Program-made: the position numbers and the translations under genes
The notes under the pieces: model-generated
What the model saw: the letters and a program-made list of their open reading frames with translations, nothing else
What the model was told of the DNA's origin: nothing
The model's database searches: none
Shown here: piece by piece, positions 6,336 through 25,035 of the stretch
Layout: the number at the start of each line of letters is the position of its first letter
Numbering within the stretch: the stretch's first letter is position 1
Virus genome (UHGV): UHGV-1341913
From: a virus
DNA length: 27,453 nucleotides
Direction: 5' to 3' (one strand)

Positions 6336-6604
6336 TGTTTGTTGTTCACACTATTTATGAAAATGAAGGTAATACTACACGTGATTATGGTCACGTAAAT
6401 CAATTTTTTAGATGCAATCCAGAATTCCGAGCTCAAAAAGACGAACGAATTTTTAAAAAATGTGTAGAGCAAGGTTTCATTTACGTTAAGCACTGGATGC
6501 AAGGAAATAAAGTTAGAACTACATATCATAGGTCTTTGCCTGAGCTTAATGATGAATTGATTTATAATAGAGCTGTAAACCAAACCTTGAAGGATGAGCA
6601 ATGA
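6335..6604 (+). CDS. hypothetical early protein (30.1 position)
   Basis: 89-aa ORF, start overlaps the upstream stop. Confidence 0.5.
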   Translation: MFVVHTIYENEGNTTRDYGHVNQFFRCNPEFRAQKDERIFKKCVEQGFIYVKHWMQGNKVRTTYHRSLPELNDELIYNRAVNQTLKDEQ

Positions 6605-8061
6605 TTCTTAAAATTCTGAATGAAATAGCATCTATTGGATCAACTAAGCAGAAGCAAGCAATTCTTGAAAAGAATAAAGATAATGAATTGCTTAAACGAG
6701 TATATCGTCTGACTTATTCTCGTGGGCTACAGTATTATATCAAGAAATGGCCTAAACCTGGTATTGCTACCCAGAGTTTTGGAATGCTGACTATTACCGA
6801 TATGCTGGACTTCATTGAGTTCACGTTAGCTACTCGGAAATTAACTGGCAATGCAGCAATTGAGGAATTAACTGGATATATCACTGATGGTAAAAAGGAT
6901 GATGTTGAAGTTTTGCGTCGAGTTATGATGCGAGATCTTGAATGCGGTGCTTCAGTATCTATTGCAAATAAAGTTTGGCCAGGTTTAATTCCTGAACAAC
7001 CTCAAATGCTGGCAAGTTCTTATGATGAAAAAGGCATTAATAAGAATATCAAGTTTCCAGCCTTTGCGCAGTTAAAAGCAGATGGAGCTCGGTGTTTTGC
7101 TGAAGTCCGAGGCGATGAATTAGATGATGTTCGTCTTTTATCACGAGCTGGTAATGAATATCTAGGATTAGATCTTCTTAAGGAAGAGTTAATCAAAATG
7201 ACTGCAGAAGCCCGCCAGATTCATCCAGAAGGTGTGTTAATCGATGGCGAATTAGTATACCATGAGCAAGTTGAAAAGGAGCCAGAAGGCCTAGATTTTC
7301 TTTTTGACGCTCCTGAAATCAGTAAAGCTAAAGAGTTTTCCGAAGTAGCTGAATCACGTACTGCTTCTAATGGAATCGCCAATAAATCTTTAAAGGGAAC
7401 TATTTCAGAAAAAGAAGCTCAATGCATGAAGTTTCAGGTCTGGGATTATGTCCCATTAGTAGAAATATATGGTCTTCCGGCGTTTCGTTTAAAATATGAT
7501 GTACGTTTTTCTAAACTAGAACAAATGACATCAGGATATGATAAAGTAATTTTAATTGAAAACCAGGTAGTAAATAACCTAGATGAAGCTAAGGTAATTT
7601 ATAAAAAATATATTGACCAAGGTCTTGAAGGTATTATTCTCAAAAATACCGATGGATTGTGGGAAAATGCTCGTTCAAAAAATCTCTATAAATTTAAAGA
7701 AGTAATTGATGTTGATTTAAAAATTGTAGGAATTTATCCTCACCGTAAAGACCCTACTAAAGCAGGTGGATTTATTCTTGAATCAGAGTGTGGAAAAATT
7801 AAAGTAAATGCTGGTTCAGGCTTAAAAGATAAAGCCGGTGTAAAATCGCATGAACTTGACCGTACTCGCATTATGGAAAACCAAAATTATTATATTGGAA
7901 AAATTCTAGAGTGCGAATGTAATGGTTGGTTAAAATCTGATGGCCGCACTGATTACGTTAAATTATTTCTTCCGATTGCGATTCGTTTACGTGAAGATAA
8001 AACTAAAGCTAATACATTCGAGGATGTATTTGGTGATTTTCATGAGGTAACTGGTCTATGA
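6601..8061 (+). CDS. 30: ATP-dependent DNA ligase
   Basis: 486-aa ORF with the adenylation motif KADGAR (lysine in QLKADGARCF). Sequence recognised as T4 DNA ligase (MILKILNEIASIGSTKQKQAILEKNKDNELLKRVYRLTYSRGLQYYIKKW...). Confidence 0.95.
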   Translation: MILKILNEIASIGSTKQKQAILEKNKDNELLKRVYRLTYSRGLQYYIKKWPKPGIATQSFGMLTITDMLDFIEFTLATRKLTGNAAIEELTGYITDGKKDDVEVLRRVMMRDLECGASVSIANKVWPGLIPEQPQMLASSYDEKGINKNIKFPAFAQLKADGARCFAEVRGDELDDVRLLSRAGNEYLGLDLLKEELIKMTAEARQIHPEGVLIDGELVYHEQVEKEPEGLDFLFDAPEISKAKEFSEVAESRTASNGIANKSLKGTISEKEAQCMKFQVWDYVPLVEIYGLPAFRLKYDVRFSKLEQMTSGYDKVILIENQVVNNLDEAKVIYKKYIDQGLEGIILKNTDGLWENARSKNLYKFKEVIDVDLKIVGIYPHRKDPTKAGGFILESECGKIKVNAGSGLKDKAGVKSHELDRTRIMENQNYYIGKILECECNGWLKSDGRTDYVKLFLPIAIRLREDKTKANTFEDVFGDFHEVTGL

Positions 8062-8246
8062 AAGCTTACTTAGAAACAATTGTCGTGGCTCAAAAAGAAG
8101 GTGGAGATGTTTCTACTTCTGTATCACAAATTATGATTGAATTTATAGATGCATATGCTTATAATAAATTCACAGAAACATTTGATACCTATGAAAAAGG
8201 TCCAAAGTTTGAAATATATCGTACTCTCTTACCAATAGATTATTAA
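8058..8246 (+). CDS. hypothetical protein
   Basis: 62-aa ORF overlapping the ligase stop (ATGA) and ending at a terminator-like hairpin. Confidence 0.45.
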   Translation: MKAYLETIVVAQKEGGDVSTSVSQIMIEFIDAYAYNKFTETFDTYEKGPKFEIYRTLLPIDY

Positions 8247-8262
8247 AGGCCTTCGGGCCTTT
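8245..8262 (+). terminator. UUCG-loop hairpin, possible terminator or RNA-stability element
   Basis: AAAGGCC-TTCG-GGCCTTT followed by AATTTT, separating the early ligase operon from the late alt promoter. Confidence 0.5.
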
Positions 8263-8267
8263 AATTT

Positions 8268-8275
8268 TATAAATA
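8268..8275 (+). promoter_or_regulatory. T4 late promoter TATAAATA (alt)
   Basis: Exact TATAAATA about 20 nt upstream of the alt ATG. Alt is a virion-packaged late protein in T4. Confidence 0.65.
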
Positions 8276-8295
8276 GAATAAACACTAGAGAGGAT

Positions 8296-10392
8296 ATGAT
8301 GGAACTCATTACAGAATTATTTGACGAAGATACTACTCTTCCGATTACAAACTTAAATCCAAAGAAGAAAATACCGCAAATTTTTTCAGTTCATGTTGAT
8401 GACGCAATTGAACAACCAGGCTTTCGTTTGTGTACCTATACATCTGGAGGTGATACTAATCGCGATTTAAAGATGGGCGATAAAATGATGCATATTGTTC
8501 CTTTTACATTAACTGCTAAAGGTTCAATTGCTAAATTAAAAGGTCTCGGTCCAAGCCCAATTAATTACATCAATTCAGTTTTTACTGTTGCAATGCAAAC
8601 GATGCGTCAGTATAAAATTGATGCCTGTATGCTCCGTATTCTTAAGTCTAAAACTGCTGGTCAAGCTCGTCAAATTCAACTTATTGCTGATAGACTTATC
8701 CGCAGTCGTTCAGGTGGCAGATACGTCCTTCTTAAGGAACTCTGGGATTACGATAAAAAGTACGCATATATTCTTATACATCGCAAAAATGTATCATTAG
8801 AAGACATTCCAGGAGTTCCGGAAATTAGTACAGAGCTCTTTACTAAAGTTGAATCGAAGGTCGGCGATGTTTATATCAATAAAGATACCGGAGCTCAAGT
8901 AACTAAAAATGAGGCCATTGCAGCATCTATTGCGCAAGAAAACGATAAACGTTCTGACCAAGCTGTAATCGTTAAAGTTAAAATTTCCCGTAGAGCAATT
9001 GCACAAAGTCAATCATTAGAATCTTCTAGATTTGAAAGTGAATTATTCCAGAAGTATGAATCTACCGCAGCTAATTTCAATAAACCTGCTACCGCTCCTT
9101 TAATTCCCGAAGCAGAAGAAATGAAACTTGGAATTAATTCATTAGCTTCTAAAACCAAGGCAGCAAAAATTATTGCCGAAGGAACCGCAAATGAACTTCA
9201 TTATGATTATAAATTCTTTTCAAAAAGTGAGGTTGATGAAGTTTCTGAAAAGATTAAAGATGTAATTCTTAATGCGATTAAAAATGAACCAACTACTTCA
9301 ATAAAATGTTTAGAGAAATACGCAGCAGCTGTTAATCAATTCTTTGAAGAATATAAAGATAATTGGCTTGATAAACACAATAAAACTCGTAAAGGACAGA
9401 CAGATGAAGTCTGGGAAGAAATAACTAAAAATTCCTGGAACGCAGCAAAAACTAAATTCCTCAAAAGAATGATTTATAGCTTTTCTGGAATTGGTGCAGG
9501 TCCAATGATTGATATTACTATTGCCCGCGATGGTTCTAAATATACTCCATCACAAAAGCGCGGCATTAGAGAGTATTGTGGTTCAGGATATACTGACATC
9601 AATAATCTTCTTTTAGGACGCTACAATCCAGAACGATATGATGTAATGAGTGAAAAAGAAATTGAATCTGCGATAAATAATTTAGATTCAGCCTTTGAAA
9701 ATGGTGACCGTATACCAGAAGGCATTACAGTTTATCGTGCTCAAAGCATGACTGCTCCTATATACGAAGCACTAGTTAAAAATAAAGTGTTCTATTTCAG
9801 AAATTTTGTATCTACTTCTTTAACTCCTATCATTTTTGGACGTTTTGGAATTACGCATGCTGGTATTGGTCTTTTAGAACCAGAAGCTCGTAATGAATTG
9901 ACAGTTGATAAAAATGAAGAAGGAATAACTATTAATTCAAACGAAATAAGAGCGTATAAAGAAAATCCCGAATACGTTAAAGTTCAAATAGGATGGGCAA
10001 TTGATGGAGCTCATAAAGTTAATGTTGTATATCCAGGAAGCCTCGGAATAGCAACAGAAGCTGAAGTTATTCTACCACGCGGATTGATGGTCAAAGTTAA
10101 TAAAATAACTGATGCTTCTAATAATGACGGAACAACATCTAATAATACAAAACTCATTCAAGCTGAAGTTATGACTACGGAAGAACTCACTGAATCAGTA
10201 ATTTATGACGGTGACCGTCTAATGGAAACTGGTGAAGTAGTTGCAATGACAGGTGATATTGAAATAGAAGACAGAGTTGACTTTGCATCATTTGTTTCAT
10301 CAAATGTTAAACAAAAAGTAGAATCATCTCTTGGAATTATTGCATCTTGCATAGATATTGCAAGCATGCCTTACAAGTTCATTCAAGGATAA
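8296..10392 (+). CDS. alt: ADP-ribosyltransferase Alt (virion-packaged; modifies host RNA polymerase)
   Basis: 698-aa ORF (an alternative start at 8299 gives MELITELF, the T4 Alt N-terminus as I recall it). C-terminal region carries the R-S-E class ART motifs: YRAQ, FVSTSL, EAEVILPRG. RBS agagagga. Confidence 0.88.
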   Translation: MMELITELFDEDTTLPITNLNPKKKIPQIFSVHVDDAIEQPGFRLCTYTSGGDTNRDLKMGDKMMHIVPFTLTAKGSIAKLKGLGPSPINYINSVFTVAMQTMRQYKIDACMLRILKSKTAGQARQIQLIADRLIRSRSGGRYVLLKELWDYDKKYAYILIHRKNVSLEDIPGVPEISTELFTKVESKVGDVYINKDTGAQVTKNEAIAASIAQENDKRSDQAVIVKVKISRRAIAQSQSLESSRFESELFQKYESTAANFNKPATAPLIPEAEEMKLGINSLASKTKAAKIIAEGTANELHYDYKFFSKSEVDEVSEKIKDVILNAIKNEPTTSIKCLEKYAAAVNQFFEEYKDNWLDKHNKTRKGQTDEVWEEITKNSWNAAKTKFLKRMIYSFSGIGAGPMIDITIARDGSKYTPSQKRGIREYCGSGYTDINNLLLGRYNPERYDVMSEKEIESAINNLDSAFENGDRIPEGITVYRAQSMTAPIYEALVKNKVFYFRNFVSTSLTPIIFGRFGITHAGIGLLEPEARNELTVDKNEEGITINSNEIRAYKENPEYVKVQIGWAIDGAHKVNVVYPGSLGIATEAEVILPRGLMVKVNKITDASNNDGTTSNNTKLIQAEVMTTEELTESVIYDGDRLMETGEVVAMTGDIEIEDRVDFASFVSSNVKQKVESSLGIIASCIDIASMPYKFIQG

Positions 10393-10395
10393 ATC

Positions 10396-12453
10396 ATGGA
10401 ACTTATTACAGAATTATTTGACGGCGCTTCGGCGCCGGTTGTTAACTTAAATCCTAAGCATAAAATACCTCAAATTTTTGCTATTCAAGCCGGTGAAGAA
10501 AGCGTGCTTCCTGGATTTAGATTTTGTACATACACCTCCGGTGGTGATACAAATAAAAACGTTAAGCCAGGCGATAAAATGATGCATATCGTAATGATAG
10601 GTGTCAATGAGAAACTATCATTAGTTAAACTTAAAAACTTGGGTGGAAATCCAATTGGTGTCATTAATGCGGTTTTTGATACTGCTCTTCAAACAATGAA
10701 ACAGTATAAAATTGACGCATGCCTATTCCGCGTACTAAAAAGTAAAACAAATGGCGCTGCTCGTCAGATGCAAGTTATTGCTGACCGTTTAGTACGTACT
10801 AAAGGAGCAGGTCGATATGTTCTTTTAAAGGAAATCTGGGATTACGATAAAAAGTATGCATATATTATGGTTTACCGTAAAAATGCCAATTTAGAAGACA
10901 TTCCAGGTGTACCTCCTATTTCAACTGAGTTATTCACAAAAGTTGAATCAAAGGTTGGTGATGTTTATGTAGATGTTAAAACAGGTAATGCTGTTCCTAA
11001 AGCTGTTGCTGTTGCTGCTTCTATTGCTTTAGAAAATGATAAGCGCACGGATCAAGCTGTTATTCAGAAAACTAAAATTAGTCGTCGATTAGCAGCACAA
11101 GCTCAATATTCTACTGTCGATGCTTCGCTACAGGGTGATAGCTTCGCTGCCAAGAAATATCAAGAGTTTGAATCTAAAGTTCCGGTATATAAAGCAGAAG
11201 GACCAATGAACTCTGGCGTTATTCAGATTGGTTCCAACTTCAGCAAAGGAGCTATCGGTGGTATGAGAAGTGCTTCTCGTTTTAAATCTAACGATTATGA
11301 ACTAGAAAGCTTCCGAAATCATATTGCATTGGCCCATGCACGTTTACGTGATCCGTCTATCAGACTGCAGAGCGATATAACACATCAAGGTTCTCAAGAA
11401 TATTTAAAGAATAAAGAATTTTTTGATTATAAAACCGATAAAATTTTGAGCGATCTCGCTGACATTAATATTTCTAATAGCTTTGATGTTATTAAGAAAA
11501 TTATCAATGATTTAGTTAAAGGTTCTAAAGCCACACCAGACGAAAAGGTAGCTATTATTCAATTTGTCATGAATGGCATTTATAAATTGATTAATGAATC
11601 TGCTGCTCAGGCATATGAATATGCAAGCACCGAAGTAACTCCAAAAGGACTGACTCAGGCTGAGTCTGATGTAATTGAAGATTATTGTGCAGATTCATAT
11701 GTTGAAATGAACTCGTTCCTCTTGGGTAAACCAGATTCTACCCGTGAAGAATACATGGAACGAGCTATTAAACACATCGAGACGCTGGATTCTGCATTCG
11801 CCAAAGGATCAGTTCTTCCTCCAGGAACTACGCTTTATCGTGGGCAAGAAGTTACTTTTAAAACTTTACGTCATAATATTGAAAATAAAATGTTCTATTT
11901 CAAGAACTTCGTATCCACGTCGCTTAAACCAAATATCTTCGGTGAGCATGGTAAAAACTATATGGCTCTAGATGATTCCGGCGCAGTATTTTCTGGTGAA
12001 GGAGAAGGTTCTGTTGATGCTGAAGATTTAATGCATATGGGTAGTCATTCTGCATATGCTAATGAAGATGCTGAAGCTAGCGTAGGTATGGTAATTAAAG
12101 GGGCTGAGCGAATCAAAGTTATCGTTCCAGGTCATTTATCAGGATTTCCATCAGAAGCTGAAGTTATTCTACCGCGTGGAATTTTGTTGAAGATTAATAA
12201 AGTAAGCACGTACATGATGAAAGAAACTGCCTATAACAAGTATCTAATCGAAGGCACAATCGTTCCTCCTTCTGAACAATTAGAAGAATCGGTATATGAT
12301 GGCGATCATCTAATGGAAACTGGTGAAGTTCGTCCAATGGCTGGGTTTAATCAATTCCTTGTAGAAGAATCAAAAGAAGAGGAAACTGAAGTTTCTCAAA
12401 TCTTGGCTTCTTTGGTTAACATCAACGGAATGTCTAAAAAGTTCAAGATGTAG
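10396..12453 (+). CDS. Alt-like ADP-ribosyltransferase paralog (intact second copy)
   Basis: 685-aa ORF starting 3 nt after the alt stop. The N-terminal ~230 aa are clearly homologous to Alt (MELITELFDG..., KIPQIF, GFRFCTYTSGGDTN, KQYKIDAC, GRYVLLKE, WDYDKKYAYI). ART motifs retained: YRGQ, FVSTSL, EAEVILPRG. Confidence 0.8.
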   Translation: MELITELFDGASAPVVNLNPKHKIPQIFAIQAGEESVLPGFRFCTYTSGGDTNKNVKPGDKMMHIVMIGVNEKLSLVKLKNLGGNPIGVINAVFDTALQTMKQYKIDACLFRVLKSKTNGAARQMQVIADRLVRTKGAGRYVLLKEIWDYDKKYAYIMVYRKNANLEDIPGVPPISTELFTKVESKVGDVYVDVKTGNAVPKAVAVAASIALENDKRTDQAVIQKTKISRRLAAQAQYSTVDASLQGDSFAAKKYQEFESKVPVYKAEGPMNSGVIQIGSNFSKGAIGGMRSASRFKSNDYELESFRNHIALAHARLRDPSIRLQSDITHQGSQEYLKNKEFFDYKTDKILSDLADINISNSFDVIKKIINDLVKGSKATPDEKVAIIQFVMNGIYKLINESAAQAYEYASTEVTPKGLTQAESDVIEDYCADSYVEMNSFLLGKPDSTREEYMERAIKHIETLDSAFAKGSVLPPGTTLYRGQEVTFKTLRHNIENKMFYFKNFVSTSLKPNIFGEHGKNYMALDDSGAVFSGEGEGSVDAEDLMHMGSHSAYANEDAEASVGMVIKGAERIKVIVPGHLSGFPSEAEVILPRGILLKINKVSTYMMKETAYNKYLIEGTIVPPSEQLEESVYDGDHLMETGEVRPMAGFNQFLVEESKEEETEVSQILASLVNINGMSKKFKM
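10422..10437 (+). other. GC-only UUCG-tetraloop hairpin embedded in the coding sequence
   Basis: CGGCGC-TTCG-GCGCCG, a perfect 6-bp G/C stem, lies 26-41 nt downstream of the paralog ATG and encodes G-A-S-A-P. The first alt copy has unrelated sequence at the equivalent position. Confidence 0.5.
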
Positions 12454-12482
12454 TTTACAAGTCCCTCGTGTTGTGTTATAAT
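12453..12482 (+). promoter_or_regulatory. T4 early-type promoter (GTTTAC -35, TATAAT -10)
   Basis: GTTTAC at 12453..12458, then TATAAT at 12477..12482 (18-nt spacer), immediately after the alt-paralog stop and upstream of the 12514 ORF. Confidence 0.55.
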
Positions 12483-12513
12483 AATCTTACTAACATAACA
12501 TGAGGAACACAAA

Positions 12514-12804
12514 ATGAAATCTTCTTTACGCTTTTTAGGTCAAGAACTTGTAGTTGAAGGCGTTATTCCTGCTGATAACGCTTTTAATGAAGCAGTTTAT
12601 GATGAATTTATCAAAATTTTTGGAACAGATAAAAAGTTCGGAATTTTTCCTTCTGAAAATTTTTCAAAGCCAGAACAGACTGAAAGCATTTTCCAAGGTG
12701 TAGTAACAGGTAAATTTGAGTCAGAAGCTCCGGTAAAAATTGAAGTTTATATTGAAGACAGTTTAGTTGCTTCAGTTGCTGCTTTTATTTCATTCCGTAA
12801 ATAA
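12514..12804 (+). CDS. hypothetical protein
   Basis: 96-aa ORF with RBS tgagga, sitting between its own promoter and a bidirectional terminator hairpin. Confidence 0.55.
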   Translation: MKSSLRFLGQELVVEGVIPADNAFNEAVYDEFIKIFGTDKKFGIFPSENFSKPEQTESIFQGVVTGKFESEAPVKIEVYIEDSLVASVAAFISFRK

Positions 12805-12808
12805 AAAT

Positions 12809-12830
12809 ATGGGGACCTTTCGGTCCCCAT
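12809..12830. terminator. bidirectional terminator hairpin between convergent genes
   Basis: ATGGGGACC-TTTC-GGTCCCCAT (9-bp stem) between the + strand ORF ending at 12804 and the - strand gene 54 ending at 12833. Confidence 0.65.
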
Positions 12831-12832
12831 TG

Positions 12833-13798
12833 TTATATTGCTCCTAATATTTTACTTTGCGAATTGACAATTCCTGTCATAGTATTAATGTTTGAAATGC
12901 TTCCAGCAGTTCCCCCTAATCTACTAAGTCGTGAAAGCGAATTAGATAATCCAGTAACGCCTCCACTATTTCCGAGAACGCTTTGAATACCGTTTATAGC
13001 AGCAGATTCAAGCCATTCAAGGGCAGCTTGTCTATCAACTGCTCCAGCCTGCATGACTCTATACGCAAAAGTAACATCAAATGTAGTTATTTGGTTATCT
13101 CCATCATATGATAACTCAGGAGCGCTCACTGACACTGGAATGCATCCGGTGAACATCACTGCAGTATGAGGTAATCCATTACGAGCATGAAGATTAACCT
13201 GAATATCTGCCTCGACATCTTGTGGCAAAGCACGCAGTCCAGTTACTGGGTCTTGAACAGCGTTAACCCAGTCTTGCATTGCACGATAGTTACAAGCTTC
13301 TGAATCCATTCTAAATGAAATAACCAAAGGGTCTAATTCTCTCCCAGTTATACGAATATTAGGAGAGTTATAGTTCCAGTCAGTTTCATAGGATAATCTA
13401 TTCTCTGGCATTTTTACAGAATATATCATCAATCCAGACGAGTTATATGCCATGTTAAAGAAGTCAATTAAATATGTACCGACTGTAAATGAGCCCAATA
13501 AACTTTGAACTGTACGTTGACTCATGGCACCAATAAGATATTTACTAACCCCTGATTTTCTTATCAGTTTTTGTGTGCCAGCAGTAATTAGCGTGGTAAT
13601 TCCCTGATTAATATCGCCTTGAGTCAATCCTAACCAATCTGAATTTAGACCCAAGTTATTATAAGAAAAGTTGCTAATTGAACTTATCAACGAAGAGCTT
13701 TTAGTTGATGGAGTTGTCGCAAAAACGCAGCTAAACATATTATTACGTTGGAAATCTGCGTTTATTGCTTGATTATTAAATTCCTCTAAAGAATACAT
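12833..13798 (-). CDS. 54: baseplate tail-tube initiator
   Basis: 321-aa ORF. Position and length match T4 gp54 in the conserved 54-48-29-28-27-51 block. Start overlaps the gp48 stop. Confidence 0.85.
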   Translation of the reverse strand: MYSLEEFNNQAINADFQRNNMFSCVFATTPSTKSSSLISSISNFSYNNLGLNSDWLGLTQGDINQGITTLITAGTQKLIRKSGVSKYLIGAMSQRTVQSLLGSFTVGTYLIDFFNMAYNSSGLMIYSVKMPENRLSYETDWNYNSPNIRITGRELDPLVISFRMDSEACNYRAMQDWVNAVQDPVTGLRALPQDVEADIQVNLHARNGLPHTAVMFTGCIPVSVSAPELSYDGDNQITTFDVTFAYRVMQAGAVDRQAALEWLESAAINGIQSVLGNSGGVTGLSNSLSRLSRLGGTAGSISNINTMTGIVNSQSKILGAI

Positions 13799-23610: not shown

Positions 23611-25035
23611 ATGACTTTTACAGTTGATATAACTCCTAAAACCCCAACAGGAGTTATTGATGAAACCAAGCAGTTTACTGCTACACCCAGTGGTCAAACT
23701 GAAGGTGGAACTATTACCTATGCTTGGAGTGTAGATAATGTTCCACAGGATGGAGATGAAGCAACTTTTAGCTATGTACTAAAAGGACCTGCAGGTCAAA
23801 AGACTATTAAAGTAGTTGCAACAAATACAGTTCCAGAATCTGAAGCTGAACCTGAAACAGCAGAAACTACGACAACTATCACAGTTCAAAATAAGACACA
23901 AACAACTACTTTAGCTGTAACTCCTGGTAGCCCTGATGCTGGAGTGATTGGAACTCCAATTGAATTTACCGCTGCCTTAGCTTCTCAACCTGATGGGGCA
24001 TCTGCTACGTATCAGTGGTATGTAGATGATTCTCAAATTGGTGAAGCGACTTCTGCTACATTTAGCTATACTCCAACTGCAAGTGGAGTAAAAAGAATTA
24101 AATGCGTAGCGCAAGTAACAGCAACAGATTATGACGCAAAAACAGTTACTTCTAATGAAGTATCATTAACAGTTAATAAGAAAACACAGACAACTACGTT
24201 AGCCGTAACTCCTGCTAATCCTGCTGCCGGAGTAATTGGAACCCCAGTTCAATTTACTGCTGCCTTGGATTCACAGCCACCAGGAGCGTCTGCTACGTAT
24301 CAGTGGTATGTTGACGGTTCTCTGGTCGATGGAGAAACTACTACTACATTTAACTATACTCCTACCACAGTTGGAGCTAAAACAGTTAAGTGTGTAGCCC
24401 AAGTAACTGCAGAAAATTACAATGAAAAGGAAGTTACTTCTAATGAAGTATCATTGACAGTTAATAAGAAGACAATGAATCCACAGGTTACATTGACTCC
24501 TCCTTCTATTAACGTTCAGCAAGATGCTTCGGCTACATTTACGGCTAATGTTACTGGAGCACCTGAAGCAGCACAAATTACTTATTCATGGAAGAAAGAT
24601 TCTTCTCCTGTAGAAGGGTCAACTAACGTATACACCGTTGACACCTCATCTATTGGAAGTCAAACTATTGAAGTTACTGCTGTCGTTACAGCAACTGACT
24701 ATGATAGTAAAACAGTTAAAGCGACTGGTCAAGTTCAGGTAACTGATAAAGTTGCTCCGGAACCAGAAGGTGAATTGCCTTATGTTCATCCTCTTCCACA
24801 TCGTACTTCGGCTTATATCTGGTGCGGTTGGTGGGTTATGGATGAAATCCAAAAAATGACCGAAGAAGGTAAAGATTGGAAAACTGAAGATCCAGATAGT
24901 AAATACTACCTGCATCGTTACACTCTTCAGAAGATGATGAAAGACTATCCAGAAGTTGATGTTCAAGAATCACGCAATGGATACATCATTCATAAAACTG
25001 CTTTAGAAACTGGTATCATCTATACCTATCCATAA
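23611..25035 (+). CDS. hoc: Hoc, highly immunogenic outer capsid protein (Ig-like domain decoration protein)
   Basis: 474-aa ORF made of tandem Ig-like modules plus the C-terminal capsid-binding region (YVHPLPHRTSAYIWCGWWVMDE...). It is about 98 aa longer than the 376-aa T4 Hoc I recall, through an internal domain duplication. Confidence 0.88.
   Translation: MTFTVDITPKTPTGVIDETKQFTATPSGQTEGGTITYAWSVDNVPQDGDEATFSYVLKGPAGQKTIKVVATNTVPESEAEPETAETTTTITVQNKTQTTTLAVTPGSPDAGVIGTPIEFTAALASQPDGASATYQWYVDDSQIGEATSATFSYTPTASGVKRIKCVAQVTATDYDAKTVTSNEVSLTVNKKTQTTTLAVTPANPAAGVIGTPVQFTAALDSQPPGASATYQWYVDGSLVDGETTTTFNYTPTTVGAKTVKCVAQVTAENYNEKEVTSNEVSLTVNKKTMNPQVTLTPPSINVQQDASATFTANVTGAPEAAQITYSWKKDSSPVEGSTNVYTVDTSSIGSQTIEVTAVVTATDYDSKTVKATGQVQVTDKVAPEPEGELPYVHPLPHRTSAYIWCGWWVMDEIQKMTEEGKDWKTEDPDSKYYLHRYTLQKMMKDYPEVDVQESRNGYIIHKTALETGIIYTYP
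23890..24462 (+). repeat. tandem duplication of a ~95-aa Ig-like domain inside hoc (unit A 23890..24174, unit B 24175..24462)
   Basis: Both units read NK(K)TQTTTLAVTP..GVIGTP..FTAAL.SQP.GASATYQWYVD...TF.YTPT..G.K..KCVAQVTA..Y..K.VTSNEVSLTVNKKT. Identical nucleotide stretches include tctgctacgtatcagtggtatgt and gttacttctaatgaagtatcatt. Confidence 0.8.

Follow-up and report, generated by a model that had tools for sequence, protein, structure and literature searches.

It is well known that the Alt protein of phage T4 is a head-packaged, injected arginine mono-ADP-ribosyltransferase, which modifies the alpha subunit of RNA polymerase and other host proteins. The DNA analyzed here (the window, a whole stretch of 27,453 nucleotides from virus genome UHGV-1341913) is a segment of a Tequatrovirus (T4-like) genome with two long open reading frames (ORFs) on its + strand, 8296..10392 (ORF1, 698 aa) and 10396..12453 (ORF2, 685 aa). 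They are separated by only 3 nt, the TAA at 10390-10392 being followed by ATC and then by the ATG at 10396, and their DNA constitutes a diverged direct repeat whose copies are spaced ~2.1 kb apart. This locus raises the question of what the second copy does. An earlier reading of the letters alone had taken the ORFs to be two full-length tandem Alt-type ADP-ribosyltransferase (ART) genes 3 nt apart, and the ORFs, their alignment (41% identity), PF03496 and the motifs confirmed this. Judging from its sequence, a structural model and its analogy to T4 Alt, we consider it likely that ORF2, hereafter also Alt-2, is a second head-packaged and injected arginine-specific mono-ADP-ribosyltransferase, that it is a normal gene of T-even phages and that its targets are partly unlike those of Alt.

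Family membership, catalytic site and selection

Both ORFs matched phrog_802 ('Alt-like RNA polymerase ADP-ribosyltransferase') from end to end, the match spanning residues 1-685 of ORF2 with E = 1e-255, and both scored well against PF03496 (128.4 bits for ORF1 and 72.5 bits for ORF2; Pfam gathering cut-off 23.4). The precomputed assignment of PF26846 covers P0001, a protein 99% identical to ORF2, and the genes of loci L014 and L015. In a BLASTP comparison the two ORFs matched each other with E = 2e-158. The sequence-only reading had recognized the R-S-E hallmarks in both (YRAQ in ORF1 and YRGQ in ORF2; FVSTSL and EAEVILPRG in both) and had made its claim depend, beforehand, on their presence after proper alignment. 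The catalytic residues proved to be intact, namely R482, S507-T-S509 and E587-A-E589 in ORF2 and R480, S505-T-S507 and E587-A-E589 in ORF1, and the R, S-x-S and E-x-E positions showed no variation across 24 aligned homologues. In T4 Alt, mutation of the corresponding glutamate of the ExE motif kills the activity (PMC11404850). The dead mutant is named E577A in that study, while in the translation of NC_000866 (L001 5458-7503) the ExE motif is E574/E576 and residue 577 is a valine; the two are taken here as the same motif with a numbering offset.

An AlphaFold2 model of ORF2, built from a 24-sequence alignment (pLDDT 74.8, pTM 0.65), comprised disordered ends (residues 1-10 and 630-685), an N-domain of the alpha/beta type reaching to ~238, a long stretch of helices at ~240-470 and the ART core. 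The middle region was helical in this full-length model, with a pLDDT of 75-90. When the model was searched against the PDB with Foldseek, its ART half matched Vis toxin, C3bot, Certhrax, CPILE-a (iota-like), CDTa and VIP2 (E 1e-7 to 1e-4, probability 1.0, TM ~0.6 on the target). In the predicted fold of its catalytic domain and in its R / STS / (Q/E)xE site, ORF2 agrees with the C3-like and VIP2-type toxins (C3bot, Vis, Certhrax, iota/CDTa, VIP2). It differs from them in its low identity (15-20%), in not being secreted and in possessing a phage N-domain, a middle module and termini that a protease could remove. A sequence search of the PDB with ORF2 returned nothing at E <= 0.01, indicating that there is no solved structure of an Alt homologue, and the NCBIfam and PADLOC searches gave no matches. 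All features open to in silico tests, in sequence and in model, place ORF2 in the R-S-E ART superfamily and in the T4 Alt family. Its arginine specificity is predicted from the presence of ExE rather than QxE and from the example of T4 Alt.

Comparison with T4 Alt (682 aa) itself leads to the same family. The two proteins share phrog_802, PF03496, PF26846, the catalytic motifs, the ITE-6 motif and an aligned LxE, and ORF2 lies in the same locus, between ligase/alt.1 and alt.-3/gene 54 and under a late promoter, as is the case for the T4 Alt family. On the other hand, they are only 42% identical, a middle part of ~180 residues is not detectably homologous, and both the insert between STS and ExE and the ARTT loop are different. 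The T4 orthologue of ORF2, which stands in the second position, is therefore the alt.-1/alt.-2 remnant and not alt itself.

Selective constraints were estimated from 8 phages as the ratio of nonsynonymous to synonymous substitution rates (dN/dS). For ORF2, the overall dN/dS was 0.043 with 0 indels, and the values for its parts were 0.015 in the N-domain, 0.083 in the middle region, 0.039 in the ART domain and 0.032 in the C-terminus. ORF1 gave a comparable value of 0.061. By these estimates, ORF2 is a functional gene under strong purifying selection. Between ORF1 and ORF2, synonymous sites were saturated (dS 1.0-1.6), including those of the N-domain (1.4), and the longest exact word common to both was 22 nt. 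The combination of saturated dS with a low dN/dS in each gene indicates that the copies are old and have been maintained independently. The same dS of 1.4 and the 22-nt limit led us to reject a recent gene conversion between the N-domains in the window.

Distribution, age and loss of the gene pair

How common is an intact second copy? A scan of IMG/VR with ORF2 returned only 5 loci, and the census was therefore performed on GenBank phage records that matched query segments at >= 90% identity. The gene 54 query matched 500 records. The ORF2-specific segment covering the middle region and the ART domain (11100-12300) matched 402, and a 121-nt probe across the T4 deletion junction was matched in one piece by 91. 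Together the latter two account for 493 of the ~500 records, which reveals a polymorphism of two states, the intact gene being the commoner one. The intact second copy is thus the majority (~80%) state of Tequatrovirus and probably the ancestral one.

Many of these genes have already been annotated. T2 carries the same pair of 697 + 685 aa, as do RB51 (where the second gene is annotated alt.-2), RB18, PP01, Kha5h and PYps47T, while phiC600P9 combines the 685-aa gene with a 682-aa alt of the T4 type; in all seven the spacer is the identical 3 nt. The alt.-2 of T2, RB14/RB32/RB51, RB18, PP01, ime09 and ~400 Tequatrovirus genomes is the same gene (685 aa, 97-99% amino acid identity) with the same spacer and flanks (lig, alt.1 ... 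alt.-3, gene 54), and there is no substantive difference from ORF2. The protein cluster of ORF2 at 99% identity contains 772 member sequences, many records label both genes 'Alt-like RNA polymerase ADP-ribosyltransferase', and the nearest record shows 98.6% DNA identity to positions 8000-12900 of the window. Duplications of alt in T4-like phages were noted by Nolan et al. 2006 (PMC1524935). The sequence-only reading was right that T4 lacks an intact second copy. Its implication that such a copy is unusual fails, and so does any broader novelty, given ~402 of 500 Tequatrovirus records including T2, the existing annotations and the presence of the pair in Dhakavirus. The gene pair is real, known already from annotation and ordinary for T-even phages, and it is no new kind of system.

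The first gene varies as well. By its position ORF1 is orthologous to T4 alt, of which it represents a different allele, with 70% identity overall, 98-100% over aa 1-240, 15-68% per 40-residue block in the middle and ART regions and ~88% at the C-terminus. This T2-type allele occurs in ~320 of the 500 Tequatrovirus records, the T4-type allele being the minority. When the alt allele and the presence or absence of Alt-2 were cross-tabulated, all four combinations were found, represented by T4, SG1, phiC600P9 and this window.

In T4, the place of ORF2 is taken by two hypothetical proteins of 61 and 67 aa, alt.-1 and alt.-2, which the sequence-only reading had described as apparent remnants of a second copy after one intact alt. 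This was correct: ORF2 residues 1-56 match alt.-1 with 95% identity and residues 62-116 match alt.-2 with 98%, and phrog_23015 and phrog_15247 match ORF2 at these positions. Alignment of T4 DNA with the window revealed that 1,699 bp are missing between the two copies of the 9-nt direct repeat CTAAAAAGT, of which T4 has kept one. On this alignment, the T4 lineage is shown to have lost its second gene through a microhomology-mediated deletion of 1,699 bp plus a 1-nt frameshift. The T4 GenBank record notes that alt.-1/alt.-2 duplicate the first part of alt; contrary to this note, the comparison identifies them as the stump of a full-length paralogue, broken there and intact as ORF2 here. A single event underlies the T4-type deletion wherever it occurs, in T4 stocks as well as in wild isolates such as vB_EcoM_112, HY03, SG1, ACG-C40 and slur03.

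Outside Tequatrovirus, tblastn located Alt homologues at one place per genome in most other Straboviridae genera. In the Dhakavirus IME341, gp076/gp077 (and likewise the JS10 Alt) show the same order, lig-alt.1-Alt-Alt-alt.-3-gp54, with the 3-nt spacer. The second IME341 Alt is the closest relative of ORF2 beyond Tequatrovirus (48% overall, with a homologous middle). The IME341 proteins differ in length (694 and 707 aa), and their N-domains are 18-55% identical to the Tequatrovirus orthologues and 65-80% identical to each other. Across genera, the effector parts track position, ORF2 being 45-75% identical there to the second Dhakavirus Alt. Because Dhakavirus has the same pair, the duplication predates the split of Tequatrovirus and Dhakavirus; this, together with the saturated synonymous sites, shows at the sequence level that the tandem duplication is old.

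Two further observations concern these comparisons. The N-domains are 55-80% identical within a genome and 18-55% identical between positional orthologues (window 8299-9012 and 10396-11109; L016 1913-2630 and 4001-4720), a pattern that suggests old gene conversion or co-adaptation to a genus-specific head scaffold or core. Also, the ART domain of ORF1 is 88-100% identical in amino acids, and 79% in nucleotides, to that of the first Dhakavirus Alt (IME341, L016 1913-3997), compared with 25-68% to T4.

Some natural loci possess a single gene (L015 5001-7055; L014 5001-7061; L017 3501-5564). The 65-kb metagenomic contig L015 has the order lig-alt.1-[one gene]-alt.-3-gp54, in which the gene joins an ORF1 N-terminus to an ORF2 body. 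The same composition, with 40-200 aa of ORF1 N-terminus at 100% identity, was observed in P0003, P0004, P0005 and P0007. In the complete GenBank genome NIC06P2, the single gene consists of an ORF1 body with an ORF2-like C-terminal tail. From their sequences, these chimeric genes look like products of unequal crossing-over between the tandem copies. An assembly artefact is an unlikely source of the chimeric single-gene contigs because the two copies in the window have no common word longer than 22 nt; for the Logan contigs an artefact is possible.

Probable target divergence and head packaging, and rival explanations

Along the alignment of ORF1 and ORF2, identity per 30-column window was 53-80% in the N-terminal ~238 residues, 13-20% in columns ~240-430 and 30-57% in the ART core. 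A diverged middle region had been noticed earlier; the low identity bears this out, but the description was an understatement, since hhalign gave a probability of only 2.2% for homology between the Alt-type and the Alt-2-type middle regions. By this profile comparison, the middle regions of Alt and Alt-2 have no detectable homology, and each type is conserved within its own lineage; the idea that they are fast-diverged versions of one another still detectable by profiles was dropped at this probability of 2%. The ORF2 middle region is homologous to that of the second Dhakavirus copy and to that of P0009-P0015. Two further differences lie in the catalytic half. The insert that ORF2 has between STS and ExE is acidic and unlike that of Alt (residues 515-565, pI 4.05). 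In the ARTT loop, the third position before the first glutamate is aromatic in all proteins of the ORF2 type (S-G-F-P-S-E-A-E in ORF2; Y/F in P0009-P0017), compared with I, P or Q in Alt-type proteins. The S-x-F-x-x-E-x-E pattern of ORF2 resembles the ARTT motif of C3, and the aromatic residue in turn 1 is one of the determinants by which C3-like ARTs recognize their substrates. The distinct middle module, the insert and the ARTT loop together make a different target set plausible, and the targets of ORF2 probably differ at least partly from those of Alt. The earlier suggestion of a changed target set is thus a reasonable one on account of the middle module and the ARTT loop.

These differences bear on the possibility that ORF2 is a redundant duplicate, which has the same targets as Alt, only raises its dose and is on the way to being lost as in T4. 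The catalytic motifs, the N-domain and the operon are indeed common to both copies, and the second gene has been lost by at least three independent routes, i.e., the T4-type deletion (91 records), the fusion of an ORF1 N-terminus to an ORF2 body (L015) and the fusion of an ORF1 body to an ORF2 tail (NIC06P2). However, the copies show only 41% identity with saturated dS (1.0-1.6), strong purifying selection acts on each of them (dN/dS 0.04 and 0.06), the pair is older than the Tequatrovirus/Dhakavirus split and the middle module is without detectable homology. Moreover, one of the fusions retains the effector part of ORF2 and drops that of Alt, which is unexpected for a decaying spare. We therefore regard redundancy as improbable.

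If ORF2 is an enzyme of its own, the next question is where it acts. The box TATAAATA, the established T4 late promoter consensus, has 6 matches in the whole window. Only one of them, at 8268, falls within 8000-12900, and none lies between or inside ORF1 and ORF2. This sole box implies that ORF1 and ORF2 most likely form a single late transcript, and the position of the ORF2 Shine-Dalgarno sequence (Table 1) makes translational coupling plausible.

For T4 Alt, mass spectrometry revealed that the prohead protease gp21 trims the protein after ITE-6 and LTE-619, giving a mature protein of 68.2 kDa (PMC5694885; PMC9026906). We calculated the mass of T4 Alt residues 7-619 and obtained the same 68.2 kDa. 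ORF2 keeps MELITE exactly and has L-E-E at 629-631 at the aligned C-terminal site, where all homologues have a glutamate at P1 and L, I or M at P3. Both of its ends thus match the gp21-site pattern of the family (ITE-6, and LxE ~55-65 residues from the C-terminus), and the predicted mature form (7-631) has a mass of 69.1 kDa.

This evidence also bears on the scenario in which ORF2, as an active but unpackaged ART, acts late in the producing cell, perhaps on proteins of the phage or of the host while virions are being assembled. It would agree with a context in which only a late promoter is present and in which packaging itself is deduced. Nevertheless, both gp21 motifs are aligned, the terminal propeptides are predicted to be disordered and the N-domain is that of Alt, and for none of these is there an obvious use in an unpackaged protein; we give this scenario a slim chance. 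That ORF2 is mainly a structural or core head protein, or a dead pseudo-enzyme with a non-enzymatic role, is scarcely credible, since all catalytic residues are invariant, the ART domain is constrained (dN/dS 0.039), T4 heads assemble without the ORF2 protein and Alt is listed as non-essential (PMC9026906), even though the literature presents Alt both as an enzyme and as part of the prohead core (discussion of PMC11404850; PMC9026906) and no part of ORF2 is more conserved than the N-domain (dN/dS 0.015).

The preferred explanation, a second injected ART, can be laid out in four steps. First, ORF2 would be co-transcribed late with alt from the TATAAATA box at 8268 and translated from its own Shine-Dalgarno sequence; these features are seen, and expression would follow from them. 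Second, ORF2 would enter the prohead core as Alt does, with incorporation probably mediated by the N-domain of ~238 aa, which is the only large part closely common to Alt. There gp21 would probably trim it after ITE-6 and LEE-631 to an enzyme of ~69 kDa, as suggested by the conserved motifs, the predicted disordered termini and the published processing of T4 Alt. Third, it would be injected with the DNA and would mono-ADP-ribosylate arginines of host proteins in an NAD+-dependent manner, for which the complete set of catalytic residues (R / S-T-S / E-x-E), a fold like that of C3 and VIP2 and the strong purifying selection argue. Fourth, its targets would probably be at least partly other than those of Alt, owing to the middle module, the acidic insert and the turn-1 aromatic of the ARTT loop.

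Several points weigh against this explanation. We infer the expression, packaging, cleavage and activity of ORF2 from sequence features and a model, the model is only of moderate confidence (pLDDT 74.8, 24 sequences), and the likeness of its ARTT loop to that of C3 exoenzyme comes from an alignment together with general knowledge of C3. In the searchable literature, no virion proteomics, biochemistry or functional study of Alt-2 was found. In addition, T4 and ~18% of its relatives do well without the second gene, and rare phages have single chimeric genes; ORF2 is dispensable at least on laboratory hosts.

A wider role is conceivable, and we propose it tentatively: Alt-2 may be a second injected effector that its own middle module and ARTT loop aim at host proteins beyond those of Alt, possibly proteins of anti-phage defence, and the N-domain may be a general module for delivery from the head. 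Regarding this N-domain, the model of ORF2 aa 1-415 (window 10396-11640) was compared with BFVD using Foldseek. Alt homologues came first, followed by uncharacterised proteins of large, unrelated myoviruses (probability 1.0, only 11-16% identity; e.g., A0A2L0UZ96, A0A6J5KPZ7, A0A0A0YVG6 and A0A513QBT8), from phages of Erwinia, Dickeya, Shigella (MK-13), Vibrio and Agrobacterium (Atu_ph07) and from uncultured phages. Several of these proteins bear annotations of Zeta-toxin, (cytidine) deaminase or ParB/Srx domains. By these model comparisons, the fold of the Alt N-domain may be a general module placed ahead of varied effectors. Separately, in P0265 (541 aa) an Alt-like N-domain precedes a non-ART C-terminal part that had no library match, and P0248 and P0279, which matched only through the N-domain in the representative search, showed degenerate ART motifs by eye.

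Features of the locus and meaning for T-even phages

The coordinates of the features are collected in Table 1. The sequence-only reading gave ORF1 698 aa, which is correct for the longest ORF. Its true start is almost certainly one ATG later, at 8299 rather than 8296 (697 aa), because T4 Alt and all annotated relatives begin with MELITE, because the GAGAGG box is well spaced only for 8299 and because the triplet preceding the ORF2 start is ATC within a 31-mer that is otherwise 94% identical.

Table 1. Positions of the two Alt-type genes, their parts and the surrounding signals in the window
Feature	Position	Strand	Remarks
Hairpin AAAGGCC-TTCG-GGCCTTT	8245..8262	+	Overlaps the stop codon of alt.1; terminator-like boundary ahead of the alt operon; read from the sequence
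Late promoter box TATAAATA	8268..8275	+	23 nt upstream of the ORF1 start
Shine-Dalgarno GAGAGG for ORF1	8288..8293	+	5 nt before ATG 8299; 2 nt from 8296
ORF1, alt (Alt-1), 697 aa, T2-type allele	8299..10392	+	PF03496 E = 2.7e-37; phrog_802 E = 2e-271
ORF1 N-propeptide M1-E6	8299-8316	+	
ORF1 N-domain, aa 1-238	8299-9012	+	
ORF1 helical middle, ~aa 239-410		+	
ORF1 ART R480	9736-9738	+	
ORF1 ART S505/S507	9811-9819	+	
ORF1 ART E587/E589	10057-10065	+	
ORF1 LTE-632 cleavage motif	10186-10194	+	Followed by the C-propeptide, aa 633-697
Shine-Dalgarno AAGGA for ORF2	10385..10389	+	Directly 5' of the ORF1 TAA; 6 nt before ATG 10396
ORF2, intact alt.-2 (Alt-2), 685 aa, second Alt-type ART	10396..12453	+	PF03496, phrog_802
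ORF2 N-terminal propeptide MELITE	10396..10413	+	I-T-E motif as in T4 Alt ITE-6; E6 invariant; residues 1-10 pLDDT < 50
ORF2 N-terminal alpha/beta domain, aa 1-238	10396..11109	+	PF26846 Tevenvirinae_ADPRT; common to ORF1; proposed head-incorporation module
A5 run	10555..10559	+	A4 in T4; 1-nt frameshift splits the remnant into alt.-1 and alt.-2
Left copy of 9-nt direct repeat CTAAAAAGT	10735..10743	+	Left breakpoint of the T4-type deletion
ORF2 middle helical region, aa 239-415	11110..11640	+	Without detectable homology to the ORF1/T4 Alt middle; candidate target-selection module
ORF2 ART catalytic domain, aa 416-625	11641..12270	+	R482 11839-11841; S507-T-S509 11914-11922; E587-A-E589 12154-12162
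ORF2 ART acidic insert, aa 515-565; ARTT loop with F584	within 11641..12270	+	
ORF2 L-E-E, aa 629-631	12280..12288	+	Aligned with gp21 site LTE-619 of T4 Alt
ORF2 C-terminal propeptide, aa 632-685	12289-12450	+	Residues 630-685 pLDDT < 50
Right copy of 9-nt direct repeat CTAAAAAGT	12434..12442	+	Right breakpoint of the T4-type deletion
Sigma-70 (T4 early-type) promoter-like site, TTTACA-17-TATAAT with TG extension	12454..12482	+	11/12 matches, top site of the region; directly after the ORF2 stop, precedes alt.-3
alt.-3, 96 aa, DUF5498	12514..12804	+	PF17602 E = 1e-64; T4 annotation; not an ADP-ribosyltransferase
Bidirectional terminator hairpin	12809..12830	.	Between alt.-3 and convergent gene 54

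The pair is flanked on the + strand by the DNA ligase gene gp30 (6601-8061) and alt.1 (8058-8246) on one side and by alt.-3 on the other, and the baseplate genes 54, 48, 29, 28 and 27 lie on the - strand downstream of alt.-3. C-terminal extension mutations in T4 alt.-3 have been reported to allow escape from the CmdTAC defence system (PMC11618068). The 62-aa product of alt.1 matches PF24647 ('Phage blade protein') over its full length (E = 5e-29); the gene overlaps the ligase stop codon by 4 nt, and its 3' end falls inside the hairpin that precedes the late promoter. That hairpin was not flagged by the consensus terminator scan because of its short T-tail. Rfam and tRNA scans of the whole window gave no matches. 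Elsewhere in the window, an ORF in the position of hoc (23611-25035, 474 aa) has PKD/Ig-like domain matches and adjoins a 226-aa ORF, probably inh, upstream of rnlB. T4 Hoc has 376 aa, and the longer ORF may encode a head decoration protein with an Ig-like domain more than T4 Hoc.

What is known about Alt has been learned mostly from T4, and T4 is atypical at this locus, as it carries the minority alt allele and has lost the second ART. In studies of host takeover, ART targets and defence evasion in T2, T6, the RB phages and therapeutic T4-like isolates, two injected ARTs should therefore be expected, and the substrates of the second could be identified by standard assays. If Alt-2 is indeed a second effector with targets of its own, T4 would be an impoverished model of its group, and the missing enzyme, along with the minority alt allele, could contribute to the phenotypic differences between T4 and T2/T6.

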